The position numbers were made by a program, and so were the translations under genes. A DNA stretch of 63,646 bases, counting the filler, from Chrysochromulina tobinii (lineage: Eukaryota): NCBI GenBank assembly GCA_001275005.1. It is 8 parts of 8 records of this genome, joined end to end, with 100 filler letters (N's around TTAATTAATTAA, not from the genome) between each part and the next. Parts side by side here need not be neighbours in the genome. Positions count along the whole stretch, not along the records: positions 35,241 to 43,970 come from JWZX01000648.1; 7 more parts are not named here. One strand, written 5' to 3'. How positions within the stretch are numbered: position 1 is the stretch's first letter; the number at the start of each line of letters is the position of its first letter. The notes beneath the pieces are model-generated. The model was not told the DNA's origin and made no database searches. It saw only the letters and a list, made by a program, of their open reading frames with translations. Shown here in pieces: positions 14,831 through 60,200 of this stretch.

Positions 14831-17800
14831 CTACCAGCATTCGCGCGTCCGCGTCACCCGAGGCACCCACGAGTGCACCACCTCCGCCTCCTTGCAAATC
14901 AGCCGGTTGATCGTGCTGCTGAACTGGCGGCCCTGTAGCCCCGCGCCATTCCAATCGTAGAGAGCGAGCGCGTAGACGCGCTCCCACGCGCGCTGAAAGG
15001 CGTTCAGTCCGAGCAGATCGACGCGGTATCCCGCGACGAAGACGGCACGGTTACGCGGCACCGTCGCGGCAAAGTGTTGGACGAGGTGTGTCAGGTTGCT
15101 CTCGACGTCGATCCCATCGCCTTGTAGGCACAGGCAGTCAAAGGGCGCCGCCTGCTGCACCTGTTGTCGCACGTGCCGACGAATCTCCTCACGGTACGCG
15201 ACGCCGCGCATCACGCGCGCCTTCAGAGCGCTTGCCTCAGCCTCGCTCGCTTCCACAGAAGCGCCCGCCACAGCGCCAGACGCCGCCACAGCGCCCGCCA
15301 CAGCGCCCTCAGCCGCCGCCACCGCCACCTTCCCGTCGTCTGGGTCACTCTCTAGGTGGGCCGCTAGCCGGCCGGCGAGGTCGCCCATCTCGAGCAGCGG
15401 CGCGTTCGCATACGGCGCGAGCCAACCGACAATCTCTGCGTCGGTCGCGCCACGGCGCATGTCGGCGGGGGTGAGGACGAGCGCATCCGATGGCGGTGGC
15501 ACGAGGCGCCATTCTTCGTCTGCGTCGATGAAGAGAGTGGGCGGTGCCGCTTCCACGCCGCCCGCGGCCGCCTGTGCCTGCGCCAAGGCCGCACTTGCGA
15601 GTGGATGTGAAAGGAAGCTCGCTTCCCGGTAATAGCCCGCGAACTCGTCCTTGAGGGCGCTAAGGTCAAAGAACCATTCGACGGTGCACCAGTCTGCATC
15701 GACGGCGTCGTCCAGCACGTTGTCGTCGCGTCGCCCGTCGCTGCCATGGTACACGAGAGGCGGCGGCGGCACGAGCCCAGAGTCGTTGGTGAAGGCGCAC
15801 GTCGAGGGCAGCAGCAGCACGCGCCCGAGGAGGACGGCAAGGCGCAGCGCATTCCGCAGCGCGCTCGTTTCCCTGAGGAGCCCGCTCACGCCCGGCTGTG
15901 CCGCCGCGTAGCGTAGCAGGCGTAATGGCCGTCCGGCCTCACCTGATGACGGAGGCGCTCAGAGGCACTCAGAGGCACTCAGAGGCGCTCAGAGGCGCTC
16001 AGAGGCACTCAGAGGCACTCATTTGCTAGCAGCACAGTCGGCCATGACCGCGGTGTAACGGGCGCATGCACGCAGCACAGTCGGCCATGACCGCGGTGTA
16101 ACGGGCGCATGCACGCAGCACAGTCGGCCATGGCCGCGGTGTAACGGGCACACCTTGGTAGTACGAGGGCGGGTCCTGATTCCACAACTGCGCCTCCCGG
16201 AAGCGATGCCGTTTGTTCTCGGCGCCGCCGATCCAATTGTTCTGCACGACGATGGGGGCCGTTCCCTCACGCTCGCCCGTTCGCTTGACGAAGTACTGGG
16301 TATCGGGAGTGGCATGGGGGGGGGGGGGGTGCAGGGGACAACGACCGTGAGGAGCATGGGTTGGGGGGAGGCGAGGGCAGCCAGAGGGCAAGTCGGAGGG
16401 AATGGCAAAGGCAGGCTCCACTCTGTTCCACTCTGTTCCTCACCTGAAAGCCGTTTGGGAAGAGGCGAGGGTGCATCACCGCCACATTCAAGTCGACGAC
16501 GAGCAGCTCGGAGAGGATTTGGTTGAACGACTGCTGGTCGTGCTGCTCTGGGTGGCGCGCCTGGACGGATGGGGAGGGACATGGTTGGGGCGAGGGTGAG
16601 GGTGAGGGTAGCCATCGGAGACGCCATCCAAGAGGCCATCGGAGAGGCCATCAGAGAGGCCATCCGAGAGGCTAGCCAAGAGACTAGCCGAGAGGCCCTC
16701 TGAAGCTCACCTGGTAGTCAAGATTCTCCTTGAGCAAGATGAGTGTTTCATTGAGGGCAATCAAGGGTAATCAAACGAGATCGCACCTGGTAGTCGAGCA
16801 CCTCCTTGAGCAAGATGAGTGGGCGCACGCCCGCGCGCGCATAAAAGAAGCCAGCCATCACCATACCCGGGGCCTCGCGCCAGTTGCGCGGCACCACCGT
16901 CGAGTCGCACGCGACGACCAGCTGCGCGCGGGGCGGGAAGACGGTAAACGGCGATGCGCGAAAGACGGCGTCGGCGTCCGTGAGGAGCACATTGTACCCG
17001 CGGACGAGCACCTCAGCGAGGTAGAGCAGGCGCAGCTTCATGATGTCCATGAAGGCGGCCGACGTGTGCGCCGCGCTCGCCGGCTGCATCTGCGGCATGC
17101 AGGGCGCGTGGTACGAGACGAAACCCGCCGACCCAAAGATGGCATGTGCGGTTTCGTCAAGTGCGATCACGAGCGTATTGGGAACGACCGCGGGTGCGAA
17201 GCCGTTGAGCACAAAGTCGGCGTAGCCCGCGTTCGCAAATGTGAGGATCACGTCGCGCCCATCCACGCCTAGCGTGCCGACCGTGCTCCCCGCCGCCGCC
17301 GCCCGTTGCAACGCGTCGTCCAGATCGGCCAGAAACGGCTCCGAGCATTTCGTCTCCGCCAGCCACTCCGCGCGGAGCATGCGCATAATCTCGGTGGAGA
17401 GATCGTGCTCGTCGTCCATGTACTCGACGAGGTTGTGGAACGGGACGCCGTGGAGGCCCGAGCGGTGCTCCAAGGGCTCGTTACGCGAGAAACCGCCGCC
17501 GCCGCCGCCGCCGCTGCCGCCGTCGCTTGCACTGCCGGCCGGCGCAAACTCGTCCACCAGCTCAGGCGATCCCAAGGCGTCCTGCTGAGTGCGCACGCCC
17601 CAGCGCTCGTCCCGCTCGGGTGGACCATTGTACGCTGCGCGACGCTGCCGGTAGCGCCGCATCGCCTCGCGGAGCCCAGGGTCTCCTTGGCCACCATTGT
17701 GCTCCGAAGCTGCCGCCGCCGCTACTGCCGCCGCCACGGCACGTGCGACTGCTGCGCTGGCTGCTGATGATGACCTGGATGCTGCAGATGGCTGATGCTC

Positions 17801-20747: not shown

Positions 20748-22647
20748 TCAGTGGCGCACTGTCTCCCGCAGCGTCGCCACTGCCCTGGCCTCGAGCTCGC
20801 CGGCGTCGGCAGCTGAAACGCCCCGCCGTGCGAGCTCCTCGAGGAAGCGCCCCACCTGATGAGGCAGGCAATCAGTGGAAATCAGTGGCAATCAGTGGCA
20901 ATCGAATCTCCTCGAGGAAGCACCCCACCTCCTCCTCACGCACGCCGTTGACGCCATACGCGGAGGGCTCGAGGGCCGCCGCCGAGTGGTAGAGCAGCGC
21001 GGCCTCGCGCGAGGCGACCACCTGATGAGGGAGATCATCTGTTTTAATCTCGCGCGAGGTGATCACCTTGGGTTTGGCGAGGCACTCTTAATCAGTGGCC
21101 ATCCAGTCGCACTCAGTCGCACTCAGTCGCACTCAGTTGTAATCTCGCGCGAGGTGACCACCTTGGGCTCGGCGCGATTGCCCATCTCGCGCTCGAAACG
21201 GCCGAGCGCCGTACCGAGCGCCGAGAGCCGCCGGTCCGCGCTCGCGTCGTAGCGGGCACTCGCGTCGTCATGGGCATCGCGCGCGTCCTCTCGGGCGTCT
21301 GGAGGCTCGGCAGCGTCCGCAAGCAGTGCCGCCGCCACGCACTTGGCCATCAGGCATGCGTCTACGAGGGTCTGATTCGCGCCCTGACCCTTGAACGGGG
21401 TCATTGCATGCGCGGCATCGCCCAGCAAGGTGACACGTGAGTGCCACGCGCTGGCGGCGCCCGCAACGGCGCCCTCGCCCGCAACGGCGCCCTTGCTCGC
21501 CACAGACGTTTTACGGCGCAGCGGCAGCGCGGGACGATCGAGCAGCGGCGTTCCCCAGACGGAGGAGGCGAGCGTCTCTTCGAGCATCTGCGGCACTGGC
21601 GCGTGCCAGTGCTTGCATCTCGCCTTCATCTCGGCGAGCAGCGCCGCGCCGCCCGCCCGACACAGCGCGCGCGCGGCTTCGGCGTCCTCGGCACGGAAGG
21701 AGAGTTGCCACATGGTCGTATGCGGCGGCCCCTCGTCCGCAAATAAAGGCGGTTGGCTCGTTTTTGGCGGTTGATTGCCAAGAGGGGCCTGGGCGGCGAC
21801 CTCAGCCGCGGGCGCCGTGTCGGGCACCGACTCGGTGGTGGAGGCTCGCTTCAGAGCCGCCGCGTCGTCGGTCGCGTCGCCCGGCCCCTTGGCATCCTCT
21901 AGCGGCTCGTATGGCATCGTGAACAGGCGGTGGGTGCCATCGACGGTGTAGAAGCCCTGCCGATGAAGGAGAGGATGCTGCGTGGTCGAAAGCCCGAGCA
22001 CGACGACGACGCCGACCTCGCGCAGAGCATCACCCACCTTCTGGGCGCGCACGGCGGAGCGCACGCCGTCCGCGCCAATGAGCACGCTGCCGTACGCCAC
22101 GTGCAGCTCGGGCGGCTGCGGCTCTGGCTCCGGTGGCGGTAGTGGCCGATCGTGCGCACGCTCGCCGGCCGCGCGGTCCCACTCTCTCGAGGTGCACGGC
22201 GACGCGCCGCTTCGCGGGCTGCTCTTCGTACCGGCGGAGCCGCCAGCCCCAGCGCACCGTTCCCGGCGCGAGCCGCTCATACAGCAGCTGGCGCAGCGTG
22301 TGGCGCGGCACCCGGAAGTTGCGGCCGTCGCCCGGCTTACCACTGAAGCAGATGCCAAAGTATCCAAGCACACGCCCATCCGCGGCGAACACCCAATGAC
22401 AGTTAGAGGAGGCTTGCATGTCAGTGGCTCTGATGGCATGTGTGAGCCCGAGCGACGCGAGCGCTGTGCTGCACGTCGGGCCGAGCGTGAGACCATAGCC
22501 ACGGCGAGCAACCTCCCAGCTCTCGTCCCGTTCATACACCAGGCATCGAACGCCGCGGTCTTGCAGCGCCACAGCGACAGCTAAGCCGCCAATGCCACCA
22601 CCGATGATGATTGCCTCGGCGTCACAGCTTTCCTGGGCCGCAACCAT
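20748..22647 (-). CDS. FAD-dependent monooxygenase (FAD_binding_3 type); introns 21161-21022 and 20928-20856; frame change near 22130-22185
   Basis: IIIGGGIGGLAVAVAL..VYERD, LIGADGVRSAVR and VTLLGDAAHAMTPFKGQGANQTLVDA fingerprints. Confidence 0.9.
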
Positions 22648-35566: not shown

Positions 35567-36009
35567 GAGCGTGAGAACTCTTCCGGTCTGTGTGTTTGCA
35601 CACGTTTGCTTTGGCACTGAATTCGAAATCAAGTCGAGTCAGAAGTGTGAGCTCTACTAGAAATACTAGTCAATGGTGGGCGAATCCAGGAACCAAACAC
35701 CCTCATCCTATCGTATGTGGGCCGCGATAAGGCCGCGACATGGGCCGCGATTGGTCAAACACACGCATGAGAGCGGGCAGTAACAGTGCCGTAGCACCGG
35801 TTGTCGCGTCTGTCGTGTTCACGTTCACGCATGCTTCAAGCTCGCGAAGGGCCTCTCGCCCTACTACGCGCATTCGTTTCGGTGTGATTTATAACACGCA
35901 TGCAATCTCGATTGTTCTGAACGTCCAAGATGTGTTTTCCTAACTTCATGCGTCGTATGGCGTCCGTGTGAGATCGTCCCGCCTGCATCATCGTCCCGCC
36001 TGCATCATC

Positions 36010-37476
36010 ATGCAGACGCGCTGCAACGTGCGCTGCACAGACGCCTTGTGCTCCGATGGCGCCGCACCGCTGTTGAATCCGCCCCTGCCGAGTCTGCGCT
36101 ATTTCATCCATGGCCACGGTGCCTTCAATTTCAGCGACGTGCTCTCCGCACTTCACGCTCGGACAGCGGGACAGCGTATGGACGTGGCGCTGCCCGTTGG
36201 TGAGGCGCAGTACCTGTCGGACATCCCAATCATGGCGGCCCTCGAGCGACATCCACTTCGCACATTCGATGCAAACGCGGCCGAGCTGCACGTCATTGGC
36301 GCGCTGCCATTTGCTTCTTACGTGCTGGCCCTCGTGAGCGGCGGAGAGGAGGCACATGGACGGCGAATGGGCGTGCTCGCAGCGGAGCTGGCGAAGCTGA
36401 CGCTCTTTGTCGAACGCGAGAGGCCCTTTCTGCTGCTGCATTGCTCGTGCTCCGCCAATGAACTGGGCGTGCCGCTCATGAATACCCTCGGGCGTGGCAA
36501 CCTGATAGTCGCCTCGTGTGATCCCTTCTTCGCACGTGATTTCGGCAAGCTGCCGCAGTCTTTCGCCCATGCCTACCGCCGTGGCGTGACAATCCCCTTT
36601 TATCCGCACTCCCTCGCGTACGATGACGGCGGACAAACCAAACGACAGGCGCCGCGCCAAACCTTCATCTTGGGCGATGGCATCGGCGATGGCCGCGCGT
36701 TGCTCAGCGCTCGCTCCGGCCTGATGTTCCACGGCGGTCTGGGGCGGTACGACCACGGGCTGCGTGACGCCATGCTGCTGCTGCTCGAGCGAGTCCGCCT
36801 GAACGGGAGCGTGCCCGTTGACACGCGGGCAGGCGAGATGACACGCGGGTCCAACCGGTCGGCATACAGCCGGGACTCATACGCACGTACGGCGCGGAGC
36901 TACCGGGCGGCATCGATGTGCATGGTGCCCTCGGGTGATGTGCCCTCCTCGCGGCGGCTCTTCGACGTCATGTCTGCCGGCTGCGTCCCCGTGCTTGTGC
37001 GCTCGTATTACCGGATGACCTCCGATCGCCACAGCTTCACCACCTCGCTGCCATTCCCGCTTTCCATCGACTGGCGAGCGACGTCGCTCTGGCTGGGGCC
37101 GATCGTGCGCGGCAAGAACCGCGAGGCATGCATGGAAGAGACGAAGAACTGGTTGCTCCGGTGGCACTCGGAAGGAGCGGAAGCGCTCGAGACGACGCGT
37201 CGGAACGCGCGCGCCGTCTTCGGTGCGTACCTCGACTCCGATCGCAATCCCGAGGGCATTGTGTGGGGGTTACTGCGCGAGATCGAGCACCGCTCCAAGA
37301 ATTGCGACCTCACGATGACCCGACCCAAGAGCCCCTACTTGAAGAACAACACGGTCGACGACCCAACCTTGTGCCCATACAATGATGCGGCCTCGGTGCG
37401 ACGACACCCGGGTTTTAGTGATCGTCCAGCATCGAAAAGGATTTATGTAGCACCCGGGACGGGTAGTAGGTGGTGA
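36010..37476 (+). CDS. Exostosin-family glycosyltransferase (GT47); start uncertain
   Basis: HPLRTFDANAAELHVI..TIPF..LMFHGG..MCMVPSGDVPSSRRLFDVMSAGCVPV..LPFPLSIDW. Confidence 0.88.
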   Translation: MQTRCNVRCTDALCSDGAAPLLNPPLPSLRYFIHGHGAFNFSDVLSALHARTAGQRMDVALPVGEAQYLSDIPIMAALERHPLRTFDANAAELHVIGALPFASYVLALVSGGEEAHGRRMGVLAAELAKLTLFVERERPFLLLHCSCSANELGVPLMNTLGRGNLIVASCDPFFARDFGKLPQSFAHAYRRGVTIPFYPHSLAYDDGGQTKRQAPRQTFILGDGIGDGRALLSARSGLMFHGGLGRYDHGLRDAMLLLLERVRLNGSVPVDTRAGEMTRGSNRSAYSRDSYARTARSYRAASMCMVPSGDVPSSRRLFDVMSAGCVPVLVRSYYRMTSDRHSFTTSLPFPLSIDWRATSLWLGPIVRGKNREACMEETKNWLLRWHSEGAEALETTRRNARAVFGAYLDSDRNPEGIVWGLLREIEHRSKNCDLTMTRPKSPYLKNNTVDDPTLCPYNDAASVRRHPGFSDRPASKRIYVAPGTGSRW

Positions 37477-37564
37477 GTGAGAGGCTATCGAGGCTTCGTT
37501 GGCATGCATCGGCCATCGCGAAATAGTTACCCCCAAACCGACCAAAACTCGAAGCGCTAAAGTC

Positions 37565-40500
37565 ATGACAGACAACACGCCGACGCCGTCGGCTGCCGCT
37601 TCTGCGGCAGCGTCTCGCATGGCTGGACAGCCGCGGAAGCTTTCGCATCCCACGCTAAAGGTGAAGCCGCCAGCCGCAGATTGTGGGTCCGATGTGATGG
37701 TCACAAGCGCACGACGCTCGCAGCAGCAGCAGCACAGCATGCGCTCCGTGTCGTCGCAACCAGGAGGCATGCCCAGCTTCCGATCCGGTGCTTCATCGGA
37801 GCGCTCCCGACGCCGACCGCCAGCGCCATCGCCAGCCCCCGCGCCGCCCGCTCCCAGGACGCAGCGACCGCCAGTTCTCATGCCGTCGTCGGCCTCCGCA
37901 CCATCGGCAGCGCCTCGCATGGCTTGGCAGCCGCAGAAGGGGGCGGCGCATCCAACGCTGATGGTGAAGCAGCCACCAGCTGACTTTGGGCTCGACGGGG
38001 TGATGACCAGCACACGACAGAACTCGCAGCAGCAGCCTAGCATGCGCTCCGTGTCGTCGCAGCCGGTTTCGGGCACGCCCAGCTTCCGAGCAGGCGCTTC
38101 GTCGGAGCGCTTGCGACGCCGACCGCACGAGACCAGAGCCGTTGCATCGCAGAGTACCATCGAAGGCCTCGACGCTGTCGTCAATGCTCGTCAACTCGTC
38201 AGCTTCACCATCGTGGCTCGAGATGCCTTCGACTCCCCCCTGTCGTCCGGTGGCGACCCCTTCGTCGTGGGCGTGCGTGGGCCGTCGCATGCGCATGCAC
38301 GCGTGACCGACACAGGTGATGGCCGATACGCGGTCGAGTTCAAGCTGTCGACCTCGGGCACGTACTCGGTGTGCGTGAGCCTACACGGTGCGAAGGTTGC
38401 TGGCTCGCCGATCGCACTCCTCGTGCAGCGACCACAGCCGAGCGCGCCCCACTGCGTGCTGCTATCTGTGCAGGCGCAGGCGAGCTGCATGCCACCAGTG
38501 CAGGCTCAGGCGCAGGCGAGCTCATATGCGCACATGCACGCGTCGGGCGCCAAGCCCGGTGCACACCTCGTCGTGCAGGCGCGCGAACCCACCCGATTGA
38601 CGATCGCGTTCCGCGACGCCTTCGGCCAACCCACTCACTCAGAGGAGGTCGACTGCTGGGTGGTCTGGGACCCGATTTGGGACGAGAGTGCCTCTGCCCC
38701 CGGAGGCGTTGGCGGAGCCGCCAGCATTTCAAGCAGTGGACCGTTGCCGACTGTAACGCCCGTCGCTCCGATGCTGCGCTCATGCTTCCAGCTACCACGC
38801 CCGACACCAAGCCAGCCGACGCGTGCCGCCCTGCGCATCCAGTCCATCTTTCGCGGCATCCTCTGCCGAAGGCATCAGGCCGCCATCTTGCGACTAGCCA
38901 AGCGCATTCAGGCATGCGCTCGAGGGCGCGCGGTGCGACGGACGCAGGCGCTCGCGCGACCAGCGCCCGTGACGGCGCCGACGCGCGGGCTGGTCGAGAT
39001 GGCGGAGGCCTTGAAGAAGGATCTTCCACAGATCCTTCCACAGAAAGAGAAGCGAACTGAGAAGCGTGCTCAACACAACGCTCGTGGCGGCGTGGGGCGA
39101 CGAACCCCTTCGGCCGAGAAGGCGACTAAGAAGGCGGCAGCTGACAAGGTGGCAGCAGAGAAGGCGGCAGCGGAGAAGGTGGCGGCTGAGAAGGCGTCGG
39201 CCGAGGAGGCGGAAAGGGTGGCCGCCGAGAAGGCGACAGCGGACAAGGTTGCAGCGGTTAAGGCAACACCAGCGCAGGGGGATGAGGCCGCGCTGCATGC
39301 GCGCTGTATGCGTGCTGCATGCGCAGAGGCGGCACAGCATACGAAATGGAGCGAGGCGTCGCTCGAGCACGGAGTGCTACTTCCGATTCGGCAGCCGCAG
39401 CAGACGGAGAGGGCCCCTCCGCAGCATAGCCCACAGCATAGCCCACAGCATAGCCCACAGGGCAGCGCAGGGCGACCGCAATCCCCTCAGAAACAGATCC
39501 CCTCGGGCCGCAATCATGCTTCCGAGGACAGCATAGCCGCCGGAACCAGTACGACTTCATGGGCGCCACTTTCGCCCAACAGCCATCGGCTCAGTAGCTC
39601 ACGCTACTGGTCCGGATCGCCACGCCGAGGCTTTGCCTTGCTGCGGCTCGGGGCGGCCGAGCGACAGCGCCATCGGCGACTCTGGGAGCGTCGGATGGGG
39701 AGTTTGCGGCCGTCGTCGCCGCCGCCGCGTCCGCCTGCCCAGACGGCGCCGATGCCCGAGACGGCGCCGTTGCCGCGGGCAGGAGCCGGAACAGCAGTTG
39801 CGAGCGAGCGCACTGGTGCTGCTGGCGCTGCTGCTGCTGCTGGCGCTGCTGCTGCCGCTGGCGTTGGCGCTGCTGAGTCGGGCGCTGCTGCTGGCGCTAC
39901 CGAGGGGAAGCAGAGAGGCGTGCCGGAGGAGACGATGCCATTCGAGCAGGCAGAGGAGAGCACTCAGAGGACGGCCGACGCAGCGGCGGCGACAACTGCT
40001 GAACGTGAGGAGTTGCTCTTCCTTCCCCTGAGCCCCAAGCCGCCAGGCGCGGGCCCCAGTCACGCTCACGAGCTCGAGGAGGACCCCGAGGGCATAGGCT
40101 TCGCCATCGGGTCGCTCTACCCAGGCACGCTGTACGCCAAGGGCCAAGTGCAGCCCGAGCACACGCTGCCCTTTTCGATAGGCCGCGCGGGCTCGTACAA
40201 GTTGTACGTGGGTCTACGTCATCAGGCAGCGCTGCTCCCAGGATGCCCATTCTCGCTACGTGTGCTTCCCGGCCTCCCGTCGGCACGCCACACGCACGTC
40301 GAGCTGCTCGAGGGCGAGATCGTCGTGAGCGAGGCGGGTAGCCTCTCGCGGAGCGTGCGGGTGGTCACGTGCGACGCGCTGGGCAACCGATGCGTGCGCG
40401 GCGGCGGAGCAGTCGTCGTGAGCAGCCCGGGTCCGGACGTGGAAACACAGCTCATCGACCGCGGCGATGGCACTTACACCTTTGCATGGCTCGCCACGCG

Positions 40501-42125
40501 CAGTGGCCGCCATCGGCTACATGTGAGCCTCGATAGCCTCGATGGCTGATTGCCACTTCTTGCCACTGATGACCTCTGATTGCCTCCCTCATCAGGTGAG
40601 CCTCGATGGCCTCGAGTGAGGAGGCCTTGCATGCAAGTGCTCACCACGGCGCGCCCCTTCCCCACAGGTGAGCCTCGATGGCCTCGAGGTACTCCGGTCA
40701 CCCGTGCACCTCCGTGTGAGTGCGGCGCCGCCCGACGTGGCGCGCTTCCAACTGACGGGCGAAGGGCTCCAGGCAGCCAACGCTGGCGAGCCCGTGCGTC
40801 TGTGCATACGCTGCTTCGACGCGTTTGGCAACCGGCTGCGGCCGCCGCACGGCTTGCCACTATCGCAGACGAACGCCGTGTTCGGCATCGCCATCGTCGA
40901 CAGCGGCAAGGGCAGCAGCGGCAGCGGCAGCAGCGGCAGCGGCAGCGGCAATAAGGGGCGAGCAGCAGCCAAGGCGAACGGTCTGACGAAGCTCCCGCGA
41001 GAGTCTCAAGAGCTCGTCAATCTGCCGGAGTTTCGTCAGGAGTTTCGTCAGGAGCAGCAGCAGCAGCAGCAGCAGCAGCTCGTTCCGCGCCAGCCGCACG
41101 TACCCCTGCGAGCAGGGCACTGCGGTGTCCTAGCCGGCCTCCGCCTCGGCTTCGACTCGATCATAGAGTCGATGCCCTTTGAGGGCAGTTGGCTTGAGGC
41201 GGACGAGTACAGCCTCGCATTGGTCGCCGAGCGCGCGGGAGATTTTGAGCTGCACGTGTGGGTCGAGCTCACGGGCCGGGGAGGTGGGCGCGCCGCACGC
41301 GAGCAGTTGCCAGGCTCGCCGCTCGCGCTGAACGTGCAGCCCTGCCGCCCTAGCGCGGCCACATCGATCATTTGCGCGCCCGAGCCGCTCAAGTCGGGAA
41401 CGCTCACGATGGCCGCGGGTCCCGCCGACATCAGCTTCCGTGTGCAGCTCCGCGACGAGTACGGGAACACGACCCCCGCTAATGAGAGAGCGCTGAAGGC
41501 ACTGGGCATCGTCGCGCACGCGCCCGACGCTGAGCGTCCTCTGTCGGTCACGCGCGTCTCGGACGCCCTCGGAGAGTGCTTGGTGTCCTACCAACCTGCT
41601 CTGTACCCGATGCTCGTGGGCGAATACCGGATCGCCATCATGCTCGGGCACGAGATCCTCGGCGAGTCGCCACTCGTCTTCGCGGTCACGCCTGGCCCAG
41701 CGGACGCCCCGAACTGCGTCATCAGCATGCCCAGCCGTGCGCCCATCTACGATCCGTACTCGAATAACCGACCCTTCAGTGCGACGCTGACGGCGTTCGA
41801 CCAGTTTGGAAACCGGCTGTGCAGGGGCGGTGCAAACGTCATGGCGCGCGTGCAGCAGGTGGAGAGAAACGGCGAGACGACGGGCGTTCCATTATCGGCG
41901 AATGTGGAGGACTGCAAGGACGGCGAATACCGCTTCACCTTCACCTGGCATCGTGTGAGCTTGGTGCTGCTGCAGGTGCGCATCGAGAACAGTGATCTCG
42001 AACCGCAGCACGTCGAATTCTTCGACCCACTCGCGCAGATGGCGCAGAGGGCGAGGGCCAAGTCACCGCCACCAGAGCAGGAGGAGAGCGACGGGGACGG
42101 TAGAGGCGAGGAATCAGAGGGTTGA
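37565..42125 (+). CDS. Filamin/ABP280 Ig-repeat protein with IQ motifs; intron 40523-40667
   Basis: FTIVARDAFD..GGDPFVV..DTGDGRYAVEF..GTYSVCVSLHGAKVAGSP and further copies; IQSIFRG and IQACARG motifs. Confidence 0.85.
40629..40667 (+). promoter_or_regulatory. Recurrent branch/acceptor cassette B, GCATGCAAGTGCTCACCACGGCGC-Yn-CCCCACAG (representative copy)
   Basis: Copies near 1455, 40629, 55244/55304/55364, 55847, 57397, 57923, 58922 (+) and 4240, 6305, 6944, 7455, 7530 (-). Confidence 0.85.
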
Positions 42126-43249: not shown

Positions 43250-43970
43250 CTAGAACCCACCGTCTTCTCTGTACTTCTCCCTTGAGGTGTCAACGGACGC
43301 CGCGTCGAACACGAAACTCGAGAGACGGCGGTCAAGGCGGTCCGACGGTAGCGGGGTTGGCGATGGGGATGGCGGCGGTGGCGAGAGGATTGCTGTGCAG
43401 CACGAGAAGCCGCTGCATCCCCTCGCGCCGAAGCCACAGGCGGCTCCGTCCGAGGCTTGGCCGAGCCTGCAGCAGGCACCCTGAGCGCCACAAAACGTTG
43501 GGCAAGGGCCGGCACGTCCGCACGCTGTCCAGCAGCGGAGACCCACGTTCCGCAATGAGGGTTGGGGCGGTGAGGGCGAGGGGGGCGGCGGAGAAGGCGA
43601 TGGCGGTGTGAGTAACGAGGGGGCAAGTTCGAGGACGCTCAATGCCAGCGGCGGTGGCGAGAGGATTGCTGTGCAGCACGAGAAGCCGCTGCATCCCCTC
43701 GCGCCGAAGCCACAGGCGGCTCCGTCCGAGGCTTGGCCCAGCCTGCAGCAGGCACCCTGAACGCCACAAAACGTTGGGCAAGGGCCTGCACGTCTGCAAG
43801 CTGTCCAGCAGCGGAGACCCACGTTCCGCAATGAGGGTTGGGGCGGTGAGGGCGAGGGTGGCGGCGGAGAAGGCGATGGCGGTGTGAGTAACGAGGGGGC
43901 GAGTTCGAGGACGCTCAATGCCGGCGGCGGTGGCGAGAGGATTGCTGTGCAGCACGAGAAGCCGCTGCAT
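43250..43970 (-). CDS. Cys-rich repeat protein with SPPPP linkers (5'-partial); 276-bp units
   Basis: LRNVGLRCWTACxRAGPCPTFCGxQGACCRLG..CGFGARGCSGFSCC twice plus a partial third; anchors at 43381, 43657 and 43933. Confidence 0.75.
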
Positions 43971-44070: not shown

Positions 44071-45967
44071 CGCCATCATGCCGTACGGCATCATGCCCAT
44101 CCCCATCCCCATACCCGGCTGCGGCTGCATCATGCCCATCCCCATCCACCTCTGAGCGATCAAGACCTTGTTCTCGGCGTTGACCGCGAGGTTCTCTAGC
44201 GCACCCGCCGCGTTCTTCTTTTGGTCATCCGTGCCGCTCTGCACCAGCGTCACGAGCGGCGCGACGGCGCCAGCCTGCGCGATCAAGACCTGGTTCTCGG
44301 CGTTGTTGAACGCGAGGCTCCACAGCGCAACCGCCGCGTGCTCCTTTTGGCCATCTGTGCCGCTCTGCACCAGCGTCACGAGCGGCGCGATGGCGCCAGC
44401 CTGCGCGATCAAGACCTTGTTCTCGGCGTTGAACGCGAGCCACCGCAGCGCAGCCGCCGCCTGCTCCTTTTGGCCAGCCGTGCCGCTCTGCACCAGCGTC
44501 ACGAGCGGCGCGATGGCGCCCGCCTGCGCGATCAAGACCTGGTTCTCGGCGTTGCACGCAAGGTTCCCCAGTGCACGCGCCGCGTGCTCCTTCTGGCCAT
44601 CCGTGCCGCTCTGCACCAGCGTCACGAGCGGCACGATGGCGCCAGCCTGCGCGATCAAGACCTGGTTCTCGGCGTTGTTAGCCGCGAGGTTCGCCAGCGC
44701 AACCGCCAAACCCTCGCGCTCCATGACCGCTTGGAACGCGCCTTGCACGGTCACGTCGAGCGCCTTGATCTTGGGCAGCTGGCCTTCCTTGTCGCTCTGG
44801 TTGGTCACCGTCACGTCCGGCTTGGAGAGGAAGTCGAAGGCCTGCTGAGGCGTCTTGGTGGCCCACTGCTCGGTGAGCACCTTGGCGAACGTATCGGCCT
44901 GAGCGGCGGCGTTCTGGATGCACACGATGTGGTAGCGCGCGTTTTCCGTGCCAACCGCCGACTTGAGGCCGTTAGGCGTCGCAAACTGCATGCTCAGCCA
45001 CGCCTCGAACTGCGTCCAGAAGCGGGACAAATACGAGAGGTCGAAGAGGATGAGGACGGTCGTGCCGAGGTAGAGCATGTTGACCTGCGCGCAAGTTAAC
45101 GGGGGAGAGAAAGGGCGGGGTGTAGCTGAGTGGTGGGGAAAGGTGGCGAAAAAACAAAAGGGCGGTGCCCGAGGCAAAGCGCGGCACAGACCTGCGACAG
45201 CATGGTCTTGAAATCGGCCGTGTCCTCGTCGCTGCGAATGAGGCCGATGGTAGGCTGGTGCTGTGGCATTGACCCGCCGTCGATCCACACGAGCTCGATC
45301 CGCTTGCCAGCCGACGAAACGAGAAAGGCCTTGATGGCCTTGAGCTGTTCGCCGTCGGGGTCGGGCTGAGTAGGGACCATCCAGCGATGGGAGATGGACA
45401 GAATCTTCTCGACATGTGTCCCGCGGACCACCTCTTCATAGCTGATGGTCACCTCGACGAAAGCACTCGGGTGCTTCGCGCGCAGCTCCTGGAAAAAGGG
45501 CAGGTTCGTGCCGGTGAAGGTGCGCAGGAAGTCCGCCTTGATCATCCAGAACCTACACGAGACAGGGCCTGCTGGCGCTTGAACAGCGCTCGGTGATCGG
45601 GATGGTGCGGCCTGTGCCAGTGCAGCACTGGGATGTAGATCAGGGGGGCTCGCCGGGTGCTGCGGCGTGGGCTTGGAGGCAGCGGCATTCCCCGTCGTCG
45701 CACCCTCGCGCTCCATGACGGCTGGCGGATACTCGTCGTCGTTGGGGGGCGCTTGCGCCTCGTTTTGCCCCCGAGCGGTCTGGCTGCTCGACGGTGCAAC
45801 GGGAACGATTTCGAGACGTCAAGGCCGAGGCTCGCCAGCTTCATCTTTTCTTGATCGCCCACTTTGACGAGGAAAGCCGACCGCTCATCTGCCGATGCAC
45901 CTTCGTACGCGGCCTTGATGTCCGCGTCTGGGCTCTCGACGGACAAAGCCGAGGCGCCCGCGCCCAT
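44071..45967 (-). CDS. N-myristoylated HET-like domain + armadillo repeat protein; intron 45191-45085; frameshift near 45810; 3'-truncated
   Basis: MGAGAS start; ILSISHRW..PDPDGEQL..VWIDGGSMPQ..MLSQ|VNMLY..YLSRFWTQFE; ARM units NAENQVLIAQAGAIAPLVTLVQSGTDGQKEHAAxAL. Confidence 0.8.
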
Positions 45968-48075: not shown

Positions 48076-48806
48076 TCACGTGGTGCGCCCGTCGTTGAAA
48101 TCGACCCACGAGCCACCCGCTTTCATCATCTCGACCTCCTCCTTGAGGTCGTCTTCAGAGTACCCCGACGCGACCACATTCCTCCAGAAGGCAAGGAACT
48201 CGTCCCACGTGATGGTGGCGCTCTTGTCCTCGTCGACCTCGTTGAACATGGCGGTGGCGTTCACCTTGGCAAAGTTCTTGCCCCAGAACGCGATCGCCTC
48301 ATCCTTGGACACCTCGCCGTTTTTGTCGCCTGCGCGAGCGCAGAGGCGGGCAGCCGTGGTGGGCGTGAGAAGGTCATCCGTGGTGGGCGTGCGAAGGTCA
48401 TCCGTGGTGGGCGTGAGAAGGTCATCCGTGGTGGGCGTGAGAAGGTCATCCGTGGTGGGCGTGCGAAGGTCATCCGTGGTGGGCGTGCGAAGGTCATCCG
48501 TGGTGGGCGTGCGAGAAGGTCATCCGTGGTGGGCGTGCGAAGGTCATCCGTGGTGGGCGTGCGAAGGTCATCCGTGGTGAGTGAGAAGGTCCAGCAGCAG
48601 CAGACCAGCCACGAGGGGCGCGCCGCACCGTCCATCGCGTCGAAGAAGGACCTGAGCTCCTGCTCGAGGGCCTCTGACAGCGCCGCCGCATCCTTCTTGA
48701 ACCCATGGGCGAGGTCGTCGCTCGATTTCGAGCGGTGGCCGCTGCCTACGGAGACGCCATCGAACCCGACGTGCTTGTCCTCTGGGGTCGATGACGCGCA
48801 ACCCAT
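48076..48806 (-). CDS. Small EF-hand Ca-binding protein with MGC acylation signal; exons 48806-48629, 48329-48076
   Basis: MGCASS; FFDAMD|GDKNGEVSKDE and MFNEVDEDKSATITWDEF loops. Confidence 0.88.
48354..48592. repeat. 24-bp intronic minisatellite, about 10 copies
   Basis: ccgtggtgggcgtg(a/c)gaaggtcat tandem. Confidence 0.95.
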
Positions 48807-53706: not shown

Positions 53707-55686
53707 CGGCGGCAGCGGCAGCAGCGGCAGCGGCGGCAGCAGCTGTACGACACCCGCGCGGAAAGGGCCGCTGCGCCTGTACGTGCTGGTCGGCCTCTCC
53801 CTCGCCGCGGGTACGGGGCTGGGCAAGGTCGCGTACCGGTACGTGAACTACGCGACGGGTACGGTGCTCAAGTCGATGAAGCTGCTGCCCGTGATGGCCG
53901 TCTCCGTTTGCTGGCTCCATCGGAGCTACACGAGGCTCCAGGTGGCTGCGGCCGTGCTGATGGTCGGCTCGGCCGTGTGCTTTGGGCTGGGCGAGGCGGA
54001 GCTCGAGCCGAGCTTCCATCCGCTAGGCTTGCTGCTCTCGTTTGGGTGCCTGGTCGCTCAGGTGACGAATCTGATGACCTCTGATGACCTCTGATGACCT
54101 CTGATGACCTCTGATGACCTCTGATGACCTCTGACGACCTCTGATGACCTCTGACGACCTCTGATGACCTCTGATGACCTCTGATGACCTCTGATGACCT
54201 CTGATGACCTCTGATGACCTCTGATGGTCGCTCAACAGTGATGAATCACCTCCGGATGCTCAGCACGTGATTGCCAATTGTTTGGCCACGTGATTGCCAC
54301 GTGATTGCGCATTCTGAGTGCCATAAACGTCAATTGGGTTGAGTCTCGATGATTGCCTCTGATGACCTCTGATGCCATCGATTGAGCCTCGTTGATGACC
54401 TCGGATGGCGCAGGCGCTCTGATGACCTCTGTTGACCTCTGATGATCGTTGATGACCTCTGATGGCGCAGGCGCTCCAGAACAACACGTCTGACCGGCTG
54501 CTGCGCGACTACGGTGTGAACGTTCACGAGGCGATGGCTTGGTCGAACGGTGTGGGCGCCGTCGCGGTGCTCTTTGTCACGCTATGGACGGGCGAACTGT
54601 GGAGGGCACTTGCCTATTTTGGAAACACCGGCCTCGGCTCGGCGCTGCTGCTACTGCGCTCGCTCCTCTTTTATGTGGGGGCTTTGCTCTACACGATACT
54701 CATCAGGTGAGTGACCTCGGAGTGACCTCGGAGTGACCTCGGAGTGACCTCGGAGTGACCTCGGAGTGACCTCGGAGTGACCTCGGAGTGACCTCGGAGT
54801 GACCTCGGAGGGCCATCTGAGTGACCTCTGCCGTCGACTCACTGACTGTATGCGGTGTGAATGTGAATGTGAATGCCCTCTGCCGTCGACTCACTGACTG
54901 TATGCGGTGTGAATGTGAATGCCCTCTGCCGTCGACTCACTGACTGTATGCGGTGTGAATTCACAGTGAGAGTGGGGCCGTCACCGCCGTCTTCGTGACG
55001 ACGATGAGGAAAGCGCTCACGGTGGCGCTCTCATTCCTCATCTTCCCCAAGCCATGGTGATGACCTCTGATGGCTGCTGATGACCCTTGATGGCCAATGA
55101 TGGCCAATGAATTGTCACTGATGGTCGCCGATTTCCACTGACGTCGCAGGTGCTCAAAATACTCTCTTGGGCTACTGCTGCTGCTGGCGGCCATCGTGTG
55201 CGAGGTGCGCCCCTCTCCGCTCCTCTCAGCTTGCAACGGCTCGCATGCAAGCGCCCATCACGGCGCGGCACGCCCCTCTCCGCTCCTCTCAGCTTGCAAC
55301 GGCTCGCATGCAAGCGCCCATCACGGCGCGACACGCCCCTCTCCGCTCCTCTCAGCTTGCAACGGCTCGCATGCAAGTGCCCATCACGGCGCGTCGCCTC
55401 CCCTCTCCTCCCGTCACAGGCGCGCGGCAAGCCAGCCAAGGACCATCAGCGCTCGCCGCCGCCCACCAGTGAGCATGCACGCGCTCCATATGGCGCGGTG
55501 TGCGGCGGCGCAGACGACAGCCCAGGCGCCGAGCTGGGCGCCGAGCTGCGCGGGCTGGGCGCCGTGCTGGGCGCGAGCAGCGGCGGGATGCGCGCCCGGG
55601 AGGGCGCCCGGGATGTTGCCTCTCCGGAGCCCAAGGATGATGACCACGACGGCGCGGGCGAGGAGCAGCCGCTCGTGCGCCCGTGA
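53459..55686 (+). CDS. Nucleotide-sugar/PAPS transporter (SLC35B/UAA family); exons 53459-54061, 54471-54706, 54967-55056, 55151-55204, 55420-55686
   Basis: YRYVNYATGTVLKSMKLLPVM, FHPLGLLL, GAVTAVFVTTMRKALTVALSFLIFPKP; all joins in frame. Confidence 0.9.
54071..54226 (+). repeat. Intronic decamer array (CTGATGACCT)n; an 11-mer array (GAGTGACCTCG)n follows at 54709-54809
   Basis: Direct tandem repeats. Confidence 0.95.
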
Positions 55687-56305
55687 CGAAGGCGTCGTAT
55701 TGGGCACCATGACCACGACGGCGCGGGCGAGGAGCAGCCGCTCGTGCGCCCGTGATGAAGGCGTCGTATTGGGCACCACCCGTGTGCCACCCGTGACACG
55801 TCGAATCGGCCGTTGCACTCGACCCTTCTATATGGACCTCCGCCTTGCATGCACGTGCTCACCACGGCGCCCTCGGTCGAATCGTCGTTGCACTCGACAC
55901 GGATTTTGCGTGGTATTCACGCAGCATACAGGCGTACATAGCCGCGGAGTCTAACAGATGCGTGCAGGGTGCAGCTCGAGGTTCCATAGAAAATAGGTAA
56001 CTGCTTAAAACTCGCGACCCCGGCCCCGCGACTGCCGCATGTGGCATGTGCCGTCGCGAATGAACAAGGAGCGTGCCTTCCGGCCTCACTTACTTGACCG
56101 CCCGTTAAGGCCGTGTCCATCACTCGCTCACTCACTCACTCACTCCCTCACTCCCTCACTCGATTGTGTGATATCCAGGCTCTTGGAGTGCGTGGGGACC
56201 ACGACGAAACTGACATGAAAACCTAATTAGGTTCGGCAACCCCGCGTGCGCAAAAGGCAAGCCGACGGCCGCAAAACCTCTCGTCGCGCCTGTTCTGGCG
56301 CGATC

Positions 56306-57294: not shown

Positions 57295-60200
57295 TTTTGT
57301 GACGACAAGCACCTCAAGTACATGGGCTGGCAGCTGTCCGACATCCAGTCGGCCGCGGTGCGCTTCGTGTGTACATGGCAGGCGAGTGCGCGGCGCGCAT
57401 GCAAGTGCTCATCACGGCGCCCCCTCTCCCCGCTGCACCCTGCAGGTGCGCCTCGCGTCGTTGCAGGCGCTCGGGCTCGTGTACGAGGCCTTTGACGAGA
57501 TCAAGGATCTGACGCCCATTCGCCACTTCACCGAGCGCTTCGAAACGCGGCTGCTATCGATGTTCAAGGACGTCGATGACAGTGTCGCTGTCGAGGCCAT
57601 CCGTCTCGTCACCCGGCTGCAGGCATGCCATCGCCCTGAGCGTTTCTGATTGCGCCTGTCGGTACCTGAACCACCTGTCAATACGATTGCAGGTGCTCCG
57701 CCTCCTCCAGACCTTTTGATTGCATCTGATTGCCCCTCTAATTGCCTCTGAGTGCACTCTGATCACAGGAGCTCGGCCTCCTCAAGTCCTTCGCATCGAC
57801 GAAGCGGGCGGCGCTCCATCTCATGTGCCAGCGCGACGTGCAGCCGAAGCTCTGGACGGCCCTCGGACCCCTCATCCAGCTCCACCTCAAGGTACGTTGA
57901 TTGCATGCGGAGGACCTGCCTTGCATGCAAGTGCTCACCACAGCGCTCTCGCCTCCCAACCCCACCTCAAGGACGACTCGCCCACGGCAACCAAAGGCGG
58001 CGCCGAGGCCGGTGCAAGCGGCAGCGCGGCAGCGGCAGGTGGTGGCGGCGCGATGGCGGACGGCGATGAGGGCGGCGGCGGCGGCGGCGGCGGCGGGGGC
58101 CCGACCTCGCCAAGTAAAGCGCAGCGGCAGCACCTCGCCACCGGCTCCGTCGCCCGGCTCGCCAAGTCCCCTCTCGTGCAGCTCGCATCGCTCCTACTCG
58201 CCGATCGGCAGGTAGCTCTGATGATCTCTGATTGCATGCTGATTGCCTCCCTCATTAGTGCAGCTCGCGTCGCTCCTACTCGCCGATCGGCAGGCGCACC
58301 AAATTCGGGTCGCGGACACGGAGGAGGTGGAGCCGGCGCTGGCGGACGAGGAGAAGGAGGCGAAGGAGGAGGCGGAGCTGGGTGTGCGCTGTGGGCAGTT
58401 GGTGCGCGCGATGGCGCCCATCGAGCCCGCGCTCACCAACTGGGCGGCGTACGTTGAGGTGCGATCACCTGCCTCTGATGGCCAGACTGATGATTCCGGA
58501 TGGACAGCTGATGGATGACCCCTGAGTGCCATCTGAGTGCCGTCTGAGTGCGTCTGAGTGCGCCCCTACCCTCAGGTGCTTACCACCGACGACGAAGATC
58601 TCGACCCATCCATCGAGGCGACGCTGCCCGTGATCCTTCAGCTGATGCATGCCGCCGCGATTGAGACGAACGGCCGCTTCGACGCCGCCGCCGCCGCGGA
58701 GCTCGACGAGCATGACGAGGACGAGGAGGAGGAAGACGACGACGGCGACGTGGACGACGTGGTAGGCGGGCGAGGACGTAAGAGTCGCAAGCGCAAGCAG
58801 CGCAAGGCGATCGCGGCTGTGGAAAAGACGTCGACGGCCCTCTCCACCCACCTGGCGAAGGCGATGGCGCAACTGCTCCAGCGGTTCGGTACGCATGCAG
58901 GACCGCTGCGCGCCGTACTCTGCATGCAAGTGCTTACTACGGCGCCCACCCCCCTCTCCCCACAGGTACGCATGCAAGGCCGTTGCGCACCGTGCTCGCG
59001 CTCGTGCAGCAGATGCGCCTCGCGTCCGCCCAGGCGACGCTGAAGGACAAGGCGTTCGAGAAGATACTCTCGGAGCTCGAAGACGTGACGACCAAGTACG
59101 CTGATGGCCTCTGATGGCTTCTGATGACCACCTGATGGCCCTCTGATGACCACCTGATGACCACCTGATGACCACCTGATGACCACCTGATGACCACCTG
59201 ATGACCACCTGATGACCACCTGATGACGCCATATGACGCCATATGACGCCTGATGACGGCTGATTACATTCGGAAGTGAATGTCTCGTTGATCAGGCACA
59301 CCGACCGGGCGACGCTCGAGGCTTGCGGCGAAGCATGGTCCGCGCTCCTGGCCCAGCCCGGGGCGCCCGCGCTGCAAGAGAAGGTGCAACGTCGATTCGA
59401 CAAGCTCGTCGAACGCCTCCTTCTCCAGCTCAAGACGCTCAAGACGGCGCTCAAGAAGCCGAGCTCGGCCCAGGGAGATCCGCCGAGATTCGGGCTCGTG
59501 TCGGAGGCGCTCGTGACGCTCCACCGGCTCGAGAGCCTCACCAAGGGCCAACGGCAGCCGCTGCCTGGCCTCTCGGGCCTGCTGGGTGGGCTGCTGCAGG
59601 TGAGGGCCGCTGATTGCATCGGATGACCTCTGATTGCCACTGATTACCTCTGATGGGCACTCGGGCCTGCTTGGTGGGCTGCTGCAGGTGAGGGTCGATG
59701 GATTGCCACCGAGTGCCGCTGAGTGCCGCTGCCCTGCCAAGGATAGCCATGGATGGCCACTGACGGCCATCTCCTCTGTTGCAGATGGCGCAGACCAAGG
59801 ACCTCTTCGGGGCCGTGGACACGTACATGAGCCACCAACACGACATTGAAGCCATCCTTCGGGGGGACTCGATGGGCGCTGGAGCAGCGGCATCGAGCGG
59901 CGCGGCTGCCAAGGGAGGCAAGAGCGGCAGCGGCAAGGGCCGCGGCGGCGGCAAGGGCCGCGGCGGCAGCAAAGGCGGCGGCGGCAAGGGCGGCGGCGGC
60001 AAGGGCCCCTCGTCGCCCACAACGGCGCGTCACATAGCCGAGCTCGAGGCGCATGCGCCCACGACGGCGCTCGCGGGCCGGCTGGCCGGCTGCGTGTGCT
60101 CGCTGTTCCGGCTGCAGCTGGCGCAGCTCGTGCTGCGCGTCGAGGCGTTGGTCGTCGCTAAGAGTGACGACGAGACAGCTGTGCGCGAGCTGCTGATGAC

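Follow-up and report, generated by a model that had tools for sequence, protein, structure and literature searches.

The gene described here, from a GC-rich alga, encodes filamin repeats and lies on the plus strand of the 63,646-base stretch of DNA that was analysed (the window). Its upstream exon, recognised from the ORF list and its translation, is an open frame from 37481 to 40522 with CAT as its last codon (40520-40522; ...GRHRLH), and a Pfam Filamin match (profile positions 23-79 of 93) extends to the last amino acid of this frame. The downstream exon, defined by ORF, translation, homologues and an RNA contig, extends from 40668 to the stop codon at 42125. ORFs and translation showed the gene to be uninterrupted from 37481 to 42125 apart from the 145 nt between these exons, in keeping with the original prediction of an otherwise intronless gene, and the two frames can be joined only by removing 73 or 145 nt. 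From 40520 to 40690 the sequence is laid out as CAT / GTGAGCCTCGAT...CATCAG (40523-40595, 73 nt) / GTGAGCCTCGATGGCCTCGAG...CCCCACAG (40596-40667, 72 nt) / GTGAGCCTCGATGGCCTCGAG GTACTCC; as had been claimed, three copies of the exon start head, in turn, a unit with one cassette (A), a unit with another (B) and the exon itself.

The 5' module of unit 1 (40523-40546) is a GTGAGCCTCGAT..GGC copy composed of 15 nt of target and a 9-nt internal duplication, with GTGAGC as its donor. It is followed by cassette A (40547-40595), which consists of CTGAT-type decamer repeats (period 10 by TRF) and ends in CCTCCCTCATCAG; sequence-based prediction places branch-point-like motifs, a pyrimidine tract and the AG within it. 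In unit 2 the 5' module (40596-40616) is an exact 21-nt copy of the exon start, whose donor GTGAGC adjoins the AG of unit 1, and cassette B (40617-40667) comprises the 12-nt palindrome CTTGCATGCAAG, then GTGCTCACCACGGCGC, a pyrimidine tract and CACAG. The third target copy (40668-40688) is exonic and encodes VSLDGLE. The second and third copies agree at all 21 positions; the first agrees with them for 12 nt and continues with the internal duplication (AGCCTCGAT twice, 40526-40543) and GGC. The 12-mer GTGAGCCTCGAT occurs exactly three times in the window, at 40523, 40596 and 40668, and in 100 shuffles with up to one mismatch allowed the mean was 0.52 matches, three being reached in 2 of the 100. 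Register 0 is the sole register of the repeat that gives GT..AG. At 40595/40596 (CATCAG|GTGAGC), within the removed sequence, a 3' splice site is directly followed by a 5' splice site, which amounts to a zero-length exon, and retention of unit 2 would give VSLDGLE followed directly by a stop codon.

Both units, 145 nt in all, are removed in RNA, as seen in a single low-depth contig of one run (X16 record 9; 273 nt, depth 2.43, 0 mismatches) that fuses 40412-40522 (111 nt) to 40668-40829 (162 nt). This contig thus joins 40522 to 40668 and shows neither a retained unit nor the use of other splice sites, the outcomes that had been named as counting against the original prediction. None of the contigs listed in four other RNA runs (X11-X14) bridged 40522/40668: X13 record 21 (40625-40850) is unspliced across the second acceptor, X14 records 26 and 32 are ambiguous, reaching 16 nt and 4 nt into the repeat, and X12, like the further run X15, had no coverage of the junction. 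No conclusion is drawn from these gaps. Among 15 listed members of a protein cluster of about 90% identity, 11 read GRHRLH|VSLNGHEVLRSP unbroken; these proteins are possibly RNA-derived and hence were not counted as a zero-unit allele. A 61% identical relative, GRHKLR|VCLNGHEILHSP, is also continuous over the junction, where homologues have H|VSL(N/D)G..EVLRSP and an internal paralogous filamin repeat of the same gene has YSVCVSLHGAKVAGSP. The 145 nt may be cleared in one step or recursively, by way of the zero-length exon; no splicing intermediate appeared among the listed RNA contigs.

In the DNA, four separately assembled contigs (L001-L004) are base-for-base identical to the window across the site, and k-mer contigs from the DNA runs X2 and X3 agree with the two-unit form. 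One exact X3 contig of 72 nt (40577-40648; depth 94 compared with 79 on the flanks) links cassette A to cassette B by way of the middle copy, with only 19 letters in A, which falls below our bridging rule of 31 letters. The search for relatives with 0, 1 or 2 units, proposed at the outset, recovered a one-unit form. Two environmental contigs from two metagenomes, L005 and L007, which share 99.87% identity with each other and 96-98% with the window, have only cassette B and read CAT|GTGAGCCTCGATGGCCCTCGAG + cassette B|GTGAGCC, with no A unit. A third lineage (L006, 97.4% identical) has the A unit including its 9-nt duplication, and unit A is in all present in the window, L001-L004, L006 and L008 and absent from L005 and L007. 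No zero-unit or A-only DNA form was seen among the contigs compared. L008 had been considered as an A-only form; after 132 nt of exact agreement with the window, through unit 1, it runs on into non-window sequence, and it was treated as a repeat-induced chimera or another locus. L009, a distant paralogue (47% identical), was left out. Because B-only relatives exist while another lineage has A, the two units have separate histories. Private differences numbered 31 in the window, 18 in L005 and 14 in L006 and, with three lineages and no outgroup, fail to unite the two lineages that have A; precise loss of A by slippage between the 12-21-nt direct repeats would be possible, and gain and loss of A would both be compatible with the data.

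The prediction of two different 3' modules was borne out. Local alignment of cassette A (40547-40595) with cassette B (40617-40667) gave a score of 8, no better than chance (reached by 181 of 1000 shuffles), whereas each cassette aligned with its copies elsewhere in the window at scores of 36-37. With at most three mismatches allowed, a 20-mer from the end of cassette A had 17 matches in the window (0.01 expected) and a 20-mer from the core of cassette B had 8 (0.00 expected). DNA runs X2 and X3 placed 1259 and 1246 contigs on the stretch, nearly all of them on cassettes, and the summed depth on cassettes of 78,076 (X2) and 43,791 (X3), compared with 41 on the unique flanks in X2, is not a copy number. 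Judged by their sequences, A and B are unrelated multi-copy families. The only inverted repeat is the 7-nt pair CTGATGA/TCATCAG, which lies inside cassette A and not at its ends. Rfam covariance models gave 0 matches to 40300-40900 at E up to 1, and folds of either unit or of both were no better than those of shuffled sequences (z-scores -1.1, 0.3 and -0.3); a reading in terms of RNA structure was dropped on these grounds. The window has 57 ORFs of at least 220 aa, and a scan of 52 of them (E up to 1e-5) found no reverse transcriptase, transposase or endonuclease domain; the remaining five overlap the focal gene, and two of these, scanned separately, had Filamin and Ig-like domains only.

Cassettes of these kinds occur at about 20 sites in the window, between 8-46-nt copies of local exon sequence. 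A raw repeat screen returned 27 (+) and 22 (-) GY..AG candidates with cassette motifs, from which alternative registers, antisense readings (40529-40682 minus; 6561-6676 plus), rows without a cassette and a 24-nt array (48354-48591) were dropped; the 18 sites kept, with two more from a test for repeats at cassette ends, make up the 20 curated sites. In that test, 17 of 29 cassette 3' ends were followed by at least 10 nt recurring within 320 nt upstream, compared with 11.5% of 400 random AG positions, and for 11 of these 17 the repeat was at least 11 nt long and its upstream copy began with GT. The commonest form in the window is a single-cassette intron with one repeat pair, but two further stacks were found. 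A second A-then-B stack, in another gene (6305-6474, minus strand, 170 nt), has GTGCGGCGCGAG three times, the middle copy including 9 nt of the upstream exon. The third (1346-1501, plus strand, 156 nt) has a decamer array flanked by a 17-nt repeat spanning the donor and then a B-like end, which is preceded by a 46-nt exon copy with one mismatch. Relative to the donor, the A-side repeat register in the three stacks is 0, -9 and -10. The order is A-then-B in all three mixed stacks of the window, and the DNA runs, scored by cassette order alone, each had about 25 A-then-B contigs and 1 B-then-A contig. Whole-unit tandem duplications of a cassette intron were present at 880-1063 (plus strand), 6539-6650 (minus) and 3329-3548 (minus). 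The inserts are about 40-65 nt long, with neither constant ends nor constant repeat lengths; several cassettes share a preferred starting phase (TGAT...), both GT and AG are missing from some inserts (for example 54414-54470 and 59600-59687), and a B core between 24-nt repeats at about 55800-55900 has no terminal AG.

We think it likely that two successive insertions of unrelated repeat-family cassettes made the stacked 73- and 72-nt introns. This supports the original prediction of two insertions at the same GT with different cassettes, the number of events being read from their footprints. The direct repeats would be target-site duplications, 15-21 nt of target being copied at each insertion; the exon's own GTGAGC would have become the donor, and the cassette would have brought the branch point, the pyrimidine tract and the AG. 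Cassette B would have come first, with a 21-nt duplication, and cassette A would then have inserted into the upstream copy and duplicated 15 nt. The enzymology would be of a break-repair type with copied-in filler, or target-primed, and not that of a transposase with fixed ends and a fixed duplication length. A selection filter may have operated in addition: a cassette with a strong AG would be harmless in an existing intron only if a complete intron again followed it, and that would be so only when the duplication starts exactly at the donor GT. That both insertions used one GT would then probably reflect what selection tolerates, and not a chance agreement of independent events. Against two independent insertions stands the recurrent A-then-B order, which such insertions do not predict, and the absence of constant insert ends and constant repeat lengths, with no reverse transcriptase or transposase domain found in the scanned ORFs, also counts against the proposed origin.

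The recurrent order is what would be expected if the whole arrangement of target, A, target, B and target had been made at once, by break repair with template switching, with the B-only form left by a later slippage loss. The differences among the three lineages, which do not polarise the presence or absence of A, also suit such an event, and the Daphnia study, as far as its available text goes, suggests that internal repeats may form with the intron 'by a complex process' (PMC4202315). We nevertheless consider it unlikely, since the B-only form exists naturally in two metagenomes, single-cassette introns with one repeat pair are the commonest form in the window, and the A-side registers of the three stacks differ as separate hits would make them. 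Much less probable still is that a single intron unit was duplicated in tandem and that one of the two 3' modules later diverged or was converted. Whole-unit duplications do occur in the window, but A and B resemble each other no better than shuffled sequences while matching other loci closely, and their 5' modules hold unequal lengths of target (15 and 21 nt). The original prediction had excluded a simple tandem duplication or an assembly stutter, and the agreement of L001-L004, the X3 contig linking A to B and the unrelated modules uphold it. That an A-only and a B-only haplotype were concatenated in assembly is hardly credible: differing unit content does coexist in one metagenome, the source of both L005 and L008, but the four separate assemblies are identical, the X3 contig crosses the site exactly, even with its 19 letters in A, and the shared 21-mer is shorter than the 31-letter Logan words, so that real reads would have been needed to bridge it if the contigs were built from such words.

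A different kind of alternative is that the cassettes are not transposable elements but filler copied from other introns during staggered double-strand-break repair, the stack being a 'staggered-then-staggered' insertion into a young intron. There is a precedent in the neointrons of Daphnia pulex, which the accessible part of PMC4202315 ascribes to staggered double-strand-break repair, with 4-12 bp direct repeats and, at one locus, six non-homologous introns gained at one site. The wide range of repeat lengths, the heterogeneous insert ends, the inserts lacking GT and AG, the B core without a terminal AG, the lack of terminal inverted repeats beyond the short pair within cassette A and the lack of a transposase or reverse transcriptase in the scanned ORFs are all in its favour. 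Against it, there are two sharply defined families on about 1250 contigs per run, whereas the Daphnia inserts are mostly unique, and the preferred TGAT... start of several cassettes hints at defined ends. We regard copied filler as possible but doubtful. This alternative touches the enzymology only and is compatible with two successive events.

The origin of new spliceosomal introns is an old open question, for which the best-documented routes are introner transposons, with short fixed duplications, and break repair in Daphnia, with unique filler; introners are known from Micromonas and Aureococcus. The present locus unites features of both routes at the resolution of a single site, in that the pre-insertion sequence is kept three times, alongside two unrelated cassettes, a natural one-unit form and RNA without both units. 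What is new here is the stack, together with its RNA evidence and the allele with one unit. The locus shows how, given a bare '3' half of an intron', any exonic GTGAG can become the start of one, and why the donors of young introns draw further insertions; the length and variability of the duplications point to a mode of insertion that surveys adjusted to short fixed ones may overlook.

As with introners, multi-copy families here form introns at unrelated sites and the target is duplicated by insertion; the repeats are direct and locus-specific and a splice site is recruited (the 15- and 21-nt repeats start at the donor GT); presence or absence differs between close lineages (here for unit A, by gain or loss); and the insert is removed from RNA with the frame restored, in one contig of one run and with continuous homologous proteins. 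In the available portions of a survey of 3,325 genomes, introner duplications are 3-9 bp, and 4 bp in a Chrysochromulina MAG family, and the haptophyte hosts include Emiliania huxleyi (653 elements), Chrysochromulina MAGs (up to 827) and a Prymnesium MAG (230; PMC9860276, supplementary table 5). The excerpted account of Symbiodinium and Polarella glacialis gives introner classes with duplications of 3, 4, 5 or 8 nt (bioRxiv 10.1101/2020.10.14.339549). The published duplications are thus short and fixed for each family, whereas those described here are 8-46 nt and vary within a family, and the inserts measure only about 40-65 nt, lack a constant 5' end and in some cases are without either splice site. 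DNA-transposon (MITE-like) introners differ further from these cassettes, which have no fixed duplication length (8-46 nt at 20 sites) and no terminal inverted repeats. Cassette A or B may nevertheless be one of the haptophyte families of PMC9860276, the comparison made here being with their published description. The accessible parts of three introner papers (PMC9860276, bioRxiv 10.1101/2020.10.14.339549 and PMC12130899) did not mention a stack of two different families at one donor around a zero-length exon, and neither stacked introners nor haptophyte cassettes whose duplications are long and variable were found described in the literature. The Daphnia introns, as far as the portion of PMC4202315 at hand describes them, are similar in having the adjacent-exon repeat at the far end of the new intron, 'staggered-then-staggered' insertions in young introns, repeated gains at one site and natural presence/absence polymorphism; their parallel gains are, however, on different alleles and not in cis, and the inserts do not come from large repeat families. 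More tentatively than for the two insertions, we suggest that these are an undescribed kind of insert, a 40-65-nt 3' splice-site cassette (or decamer filler) with 8-46-nt target duplications, no fixed ends and probably no transposase, which would have been active so recently that it is polymorphic in lakes and would land repeatedly at the donors of young introns to give stacks of complete introns with zero-length exons, perhaps recursively spliced.

Recursive splice sites and zero-length exons are known from long animal introns of tens of kilobases. The stack resembles them in that a 3' site abuts a 5' site within the removed stretch (CCTCCCTCATCAG|GTGAGC, 40595/40596), but it totals 145 nt, the juxtaposition would be a by-product of two insertions, and its stepwise removal would be a prediction from the sequence. 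An intron made by exonic tandem duplication of AGGT was rejected as an explanation, since the upstream exon ends in CAT and not AG and 100 of the 145 nt are cassette sequence common to other loci. Fungal stwintrons are described, in the accessible text of PMC12403724, as two spliceosomal introns at one position that form a propagating sequence family, in which the inner intron lies within a splice signal of the outer one, interrupting it, and the order of removal is obligatory. In contrast, the units of the present stack are adjacent and complete, each with an intact GT...AG, and would be removable in any order or together, which makes the locus a tractable case for comparing the removal of abutting introns together with their removal one after another.

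The stretch from 40520 to 40690 in the filamin-repeat gene reads, in order, CAT, a 73-nt unit (unit 1, 40523-40595), a 72-nt unit (unit 2, 40596-40667) and exon, and re-reading it bore out the coordinates and description of the stack in the original prediction. Unit 1, unit 2 and the exon share one start (GTGAGCCTCGAT), a 12-mer of which the whole window (63,646 bases) has exactly three copies, one at each of these starts. Unit 2 and the exon have 21 nt in common (GTGAGCCTCGATGGCCTCGAG), and in unit 1 the first 12 nt are followed by a 9-nt internal duplication (AGCCTCGAT twice) and then GGC, so that target sequence makes up 15 nt of this unit in all. The 3' part of unit 1 (cassette A, 40547-40595) is a run of CTGAT-type decamers followed by CCTCCCTCATCAG, and that of unit 2 (cassette B, 40617-40667) consists of a 12-nt palindrome CTTGCATGCAAG, GTGCTCACCACGGCGC, a pyrimidine run and CACAG. 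Judged by sequence only, the repeated CTGAT motifs about 17 nt from the AG of cassette A, and a CTCAC about 26 nt from that of cassette B, are branch-point-like.

The two cassettes are mutually unrelated, and each is a repeat family. Their best local alignment to one another scored 8, a chance level reached in 181 of 1000 shuffles, whereas each matches copies elsewhere in the window at a score of 36-37. With up to three mismatches allowed, the last 20 nt of cassette A gave 17 matches in the window against 0.01 expected, and the core of cassette B gave 8 against 0.00; the terminal 20 nt of the focal B copy occur nowhere else in the window. In two DNA sequencing runs, 1259 and 1246 contigs fell on a 1.4-kb stretch, nearly all of them over the cassettes, where the summed depth (which is not a copy number) exceeded the depth on unique flanking sequence roughly a thousandfold.

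The open frames on either side (37481-40522 and 40668-42125) are in register only after removal of 73 or 145 nt, and a stop codon is met on reading into either unit. The Pfam Filamin match of the upstream frame extends to the final residue of that frame (profile positions 23-79 of 93), and the next Filamin repeat begins 22 residues into the downstream frame. The joined reading, GRHRLH followed by VSLDGLEVLRSPVHLRV, resembles a repeat found earlier in this protein (YSVCVSLHGAKVAGSPIALLV). In a cluster of proteins about 90% identical, GRHRLH followed by VSLNGHEVLRSP is unbroken in 11 of the 15 listed members, the remaining four being shorter pieces that end before the site, and the protein of a 61% identical relative is likewise unbroken there. 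The predicted junction of 40522 with 40668 was seen in RNA, in one contig of one run (X16; 273 nt, depth 2.43, no mismatches): its letters 163-273 correspond to 40412-40522 and its letters 1-162 to 40668-40829, so that precisely the 145 nt between them, GT through AG, are left out. No contig bridged the junction in the other five RNA runs, and one RNA contig (X13 record 21) is an unspliced piece across the second acceptor. The site is thus an intron position from which both units are removed. The same mRNA would result whether donor 1 is spliced straight to acceptor 2 or removal takes two steps; with unit 1 removed alone, a stop would remain.

An assembly artefact was ruled out, in agreement with the earlier denial of assembly stutter, by four separately assembled contigs (L001-L004) identical to the window across 5.5 kb, site included, and by contigs of DNA runs X2 and X3, one of 3675 nt that leads from the exon into unit 1 and one of 313 nt that leads from cassette B into the exon. 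An exact 72-nt contig from X3 (40577-40648) joins the last letters of A, across the middle copy, to the first letters of B, although with only 19 letters in A it lies below the 31-letter criterion for bridging. The words of Logan's index are 31 letters long, more than the shared 21-mer; if the contigs were built from words of this assumed size, the link between A and B must derive from reads.

A scan of metagenome contigs, queried with the 181 residues that lie upstream of the site, gave nine loci, among which was a one-unit form, one of the forms that the original prediction had suggested looking for. Two contigs from different metagenomes (L005 and L007; 99.87% identical mutually and 96-98% to the window) read CAT, GTGAGCCTCGATGGCCCTCGAG, cassette B ending in CACAG, and GTGAGCCTCGATGGCCTCGAG; they carry unit 2 (B) but not unit 1, and their intronic copy has an additional C. 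A third, L006, is 97.4% identical; unit 1 is present there, differing by one substitution and including the 9-nt duplication, and the contig stops within it. A fourth (L008), from the same metagenome as L005, has exon and unit 1 and then, from 133 to 2558, after CATCAG, foreign sequence that the window lacks; the contig was probably misassembled into a chimera at the repeated cassette and was used only to show that unit 1 occurs in that metagenome. Unit A is therefore present or absent between lineages 1-2% apart in substitutions. Private differences numbered 31 in the window, 18 in L005 and 14 in L006 in a comparison made without outgroup DNA, and the flanking repeats would permit precise loss of A as well as gain.

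The same footprint recurs across the window. At 17 of 29 cassette 3' ends, the next 10 nt or more have a second copy no further than 320 nt upstream, and in 11 of these 17 the repeat is at least 11 nt long and its upstream copy begins with GT; the control value was 11.5% of 400 random AG positions. Over a hand-curated list of 20 sites the repeat measures 8 to 46 nt. The origin of the splice sites varies, each being supplied by whichever part offers one: in the focal units, as at 634-706 and 20856-20928, the repeat supplies the donor and the cassette the AG; at 57892-57971, 58212-58293, 3799-3856 and 16726-16801 it is the insert that supplies the GT and the repeat the AG; and at 54414-54470 and 59600-59687 a repeat spanning AG|GY supplies both sites. 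At about 55800-55900 (+) direct repeats of 24 nt (one indel) enclose a B core that lacks a terminal AG, a footprint with no usable acceptor, which argues that the repeats mark insertion, not splicing. Whole cassette units of 46-131 nt also stand in tandem, each with its own kind, at 880-1063 (+), 6539-6650 (-), 3329-3548 (-), 7455-7592 (-) and about 55160-55360 (+), so that introns in the window also grow by local duplication. CTCGAG was present in 5 of the 20 reconstructed target sites (among them 40683-40688, 20835-20850 (-), 3799-3830 (-) and 7440-7455 (-)) against 0.59 expected (P about 0.0004), a post hoc excess measured against random window segments not restricted to coding DNA, which may reflect a target preference or merely Leu-Glu codon pairs.

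The data show how the site is built, that both cassettes belong to families, what splicing yields and that the units are separable. The reading originally proposed is supported, and the stack most likely arose by two cassette insertions, each duplicating its target. Cassette B would have entered with a 21-nt duplication, giving CAT-target-B-target, and cassette A would then have entered with 15 nt, its left end at the donor GT, giving CAT-target'-A-target-B-target. The cassettes would in effect be portable 3' halves of introns, an exonic GTGAG at the left end of the duplication becoming the donor; there are only seven GTGAG in the 4.5 kb of exon, five of them GTGAGC. The shared GT need not be a second independent coincidence: a young intron may be the one place in the gene where another insertion is tolerated, and a cassette with a strong AG would be harmless there only if it is followed by a whole intron again, that is, if the repeat starts at the donor (register 0). 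There are two other mixed stacks. At 6305-6474 (-) an A-type insert precedes a B-type one, with GTGCGGCGCGAG in three copies, the middle one including 9 nt of upstream exon; at 1346-1501 (+) repeats of 17 nt flank a decamer array, and after a 46-nt copy of exon sequence comes a B-like end. In both stacks the local exon junction has a copy in the middle and the repeats span the donor, with registers of -9 and -10, and the A-type inserts have no AG end adjoining the repeat, which fits this argument.

Independent insertions do not predict the recurrent order, A then B in all three mixed stacks. Contigs joining the end of A to the B core (40580-40600 to 40624-40629) numbered about 25 against one reversed in each DNA run, a count that leaves the letters between A and B unread but suggests that the arrangement is common genome-wide. 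Such an order would be predicted by a single complex repair event, or by a preference of A-type inserts for the donors of B-type introns. As to the means of insertion, the repeat length is variable, the ends are inconstant and inverted termini are absent, all contrary to a classical transposase, as is the finding of no transposase or reverse transcriptase domain in the window's long ORFs. A better fit is repair of breaks by copying in filler, or a target-primed mechanism; a non-transposon origin of this kind is nevertheless put forward tentatively, as possible rather than probable.

The focal case sits between introners and the neointrons of Daphnia. In the portions of the introner literature drawn on here, introners draw one of their splice sites from the target duplication (PMC9860276; bioRxiv 10.1101/2020.10.14.339549), haptophytes are among the recorded hosts (supplementary table 5, PMC9860276), and the duplications are 3-9 bp and fixed per family, unlike the 8-46 nt in the window. 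The corresponding portions on Daphnia describe direct repeats, 4-12 bp long, that derive from the exon, secondary inserts termed 'staggered-then-staggered', and recurrent gain at a single site on different alleles (PMC4202315); those inserts are not repeat families, whereas cassettes A and B are. What the focal case adds is that two families are stacked in cis, separated by a zero-length exon. The A/B junction is like a recursive splice site in its letters only, and the units are not nested, hence not a stwintron.

Around the gene, an open frame with an Exostosin GT47 domain (35944-37473 (+)) ends 5 nt before the focal gene's frame, in another frame, and is probably a neighbouring gene. Downstream lie tandem repeats at 43372-43970 (period 276, 2.2 copies, 97% matches) and 44152-44707 (period 123/249, 4.5 copies, 87%). 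The window contains 546 all-N hexamers, and its N run is read as marking part of it as assembly gap. An array of 24-nt units resembling GAAGGTCATCCGTGGTGGGCGTGC, distinct from cassettes A and B, occupies 48354-48591 (+).
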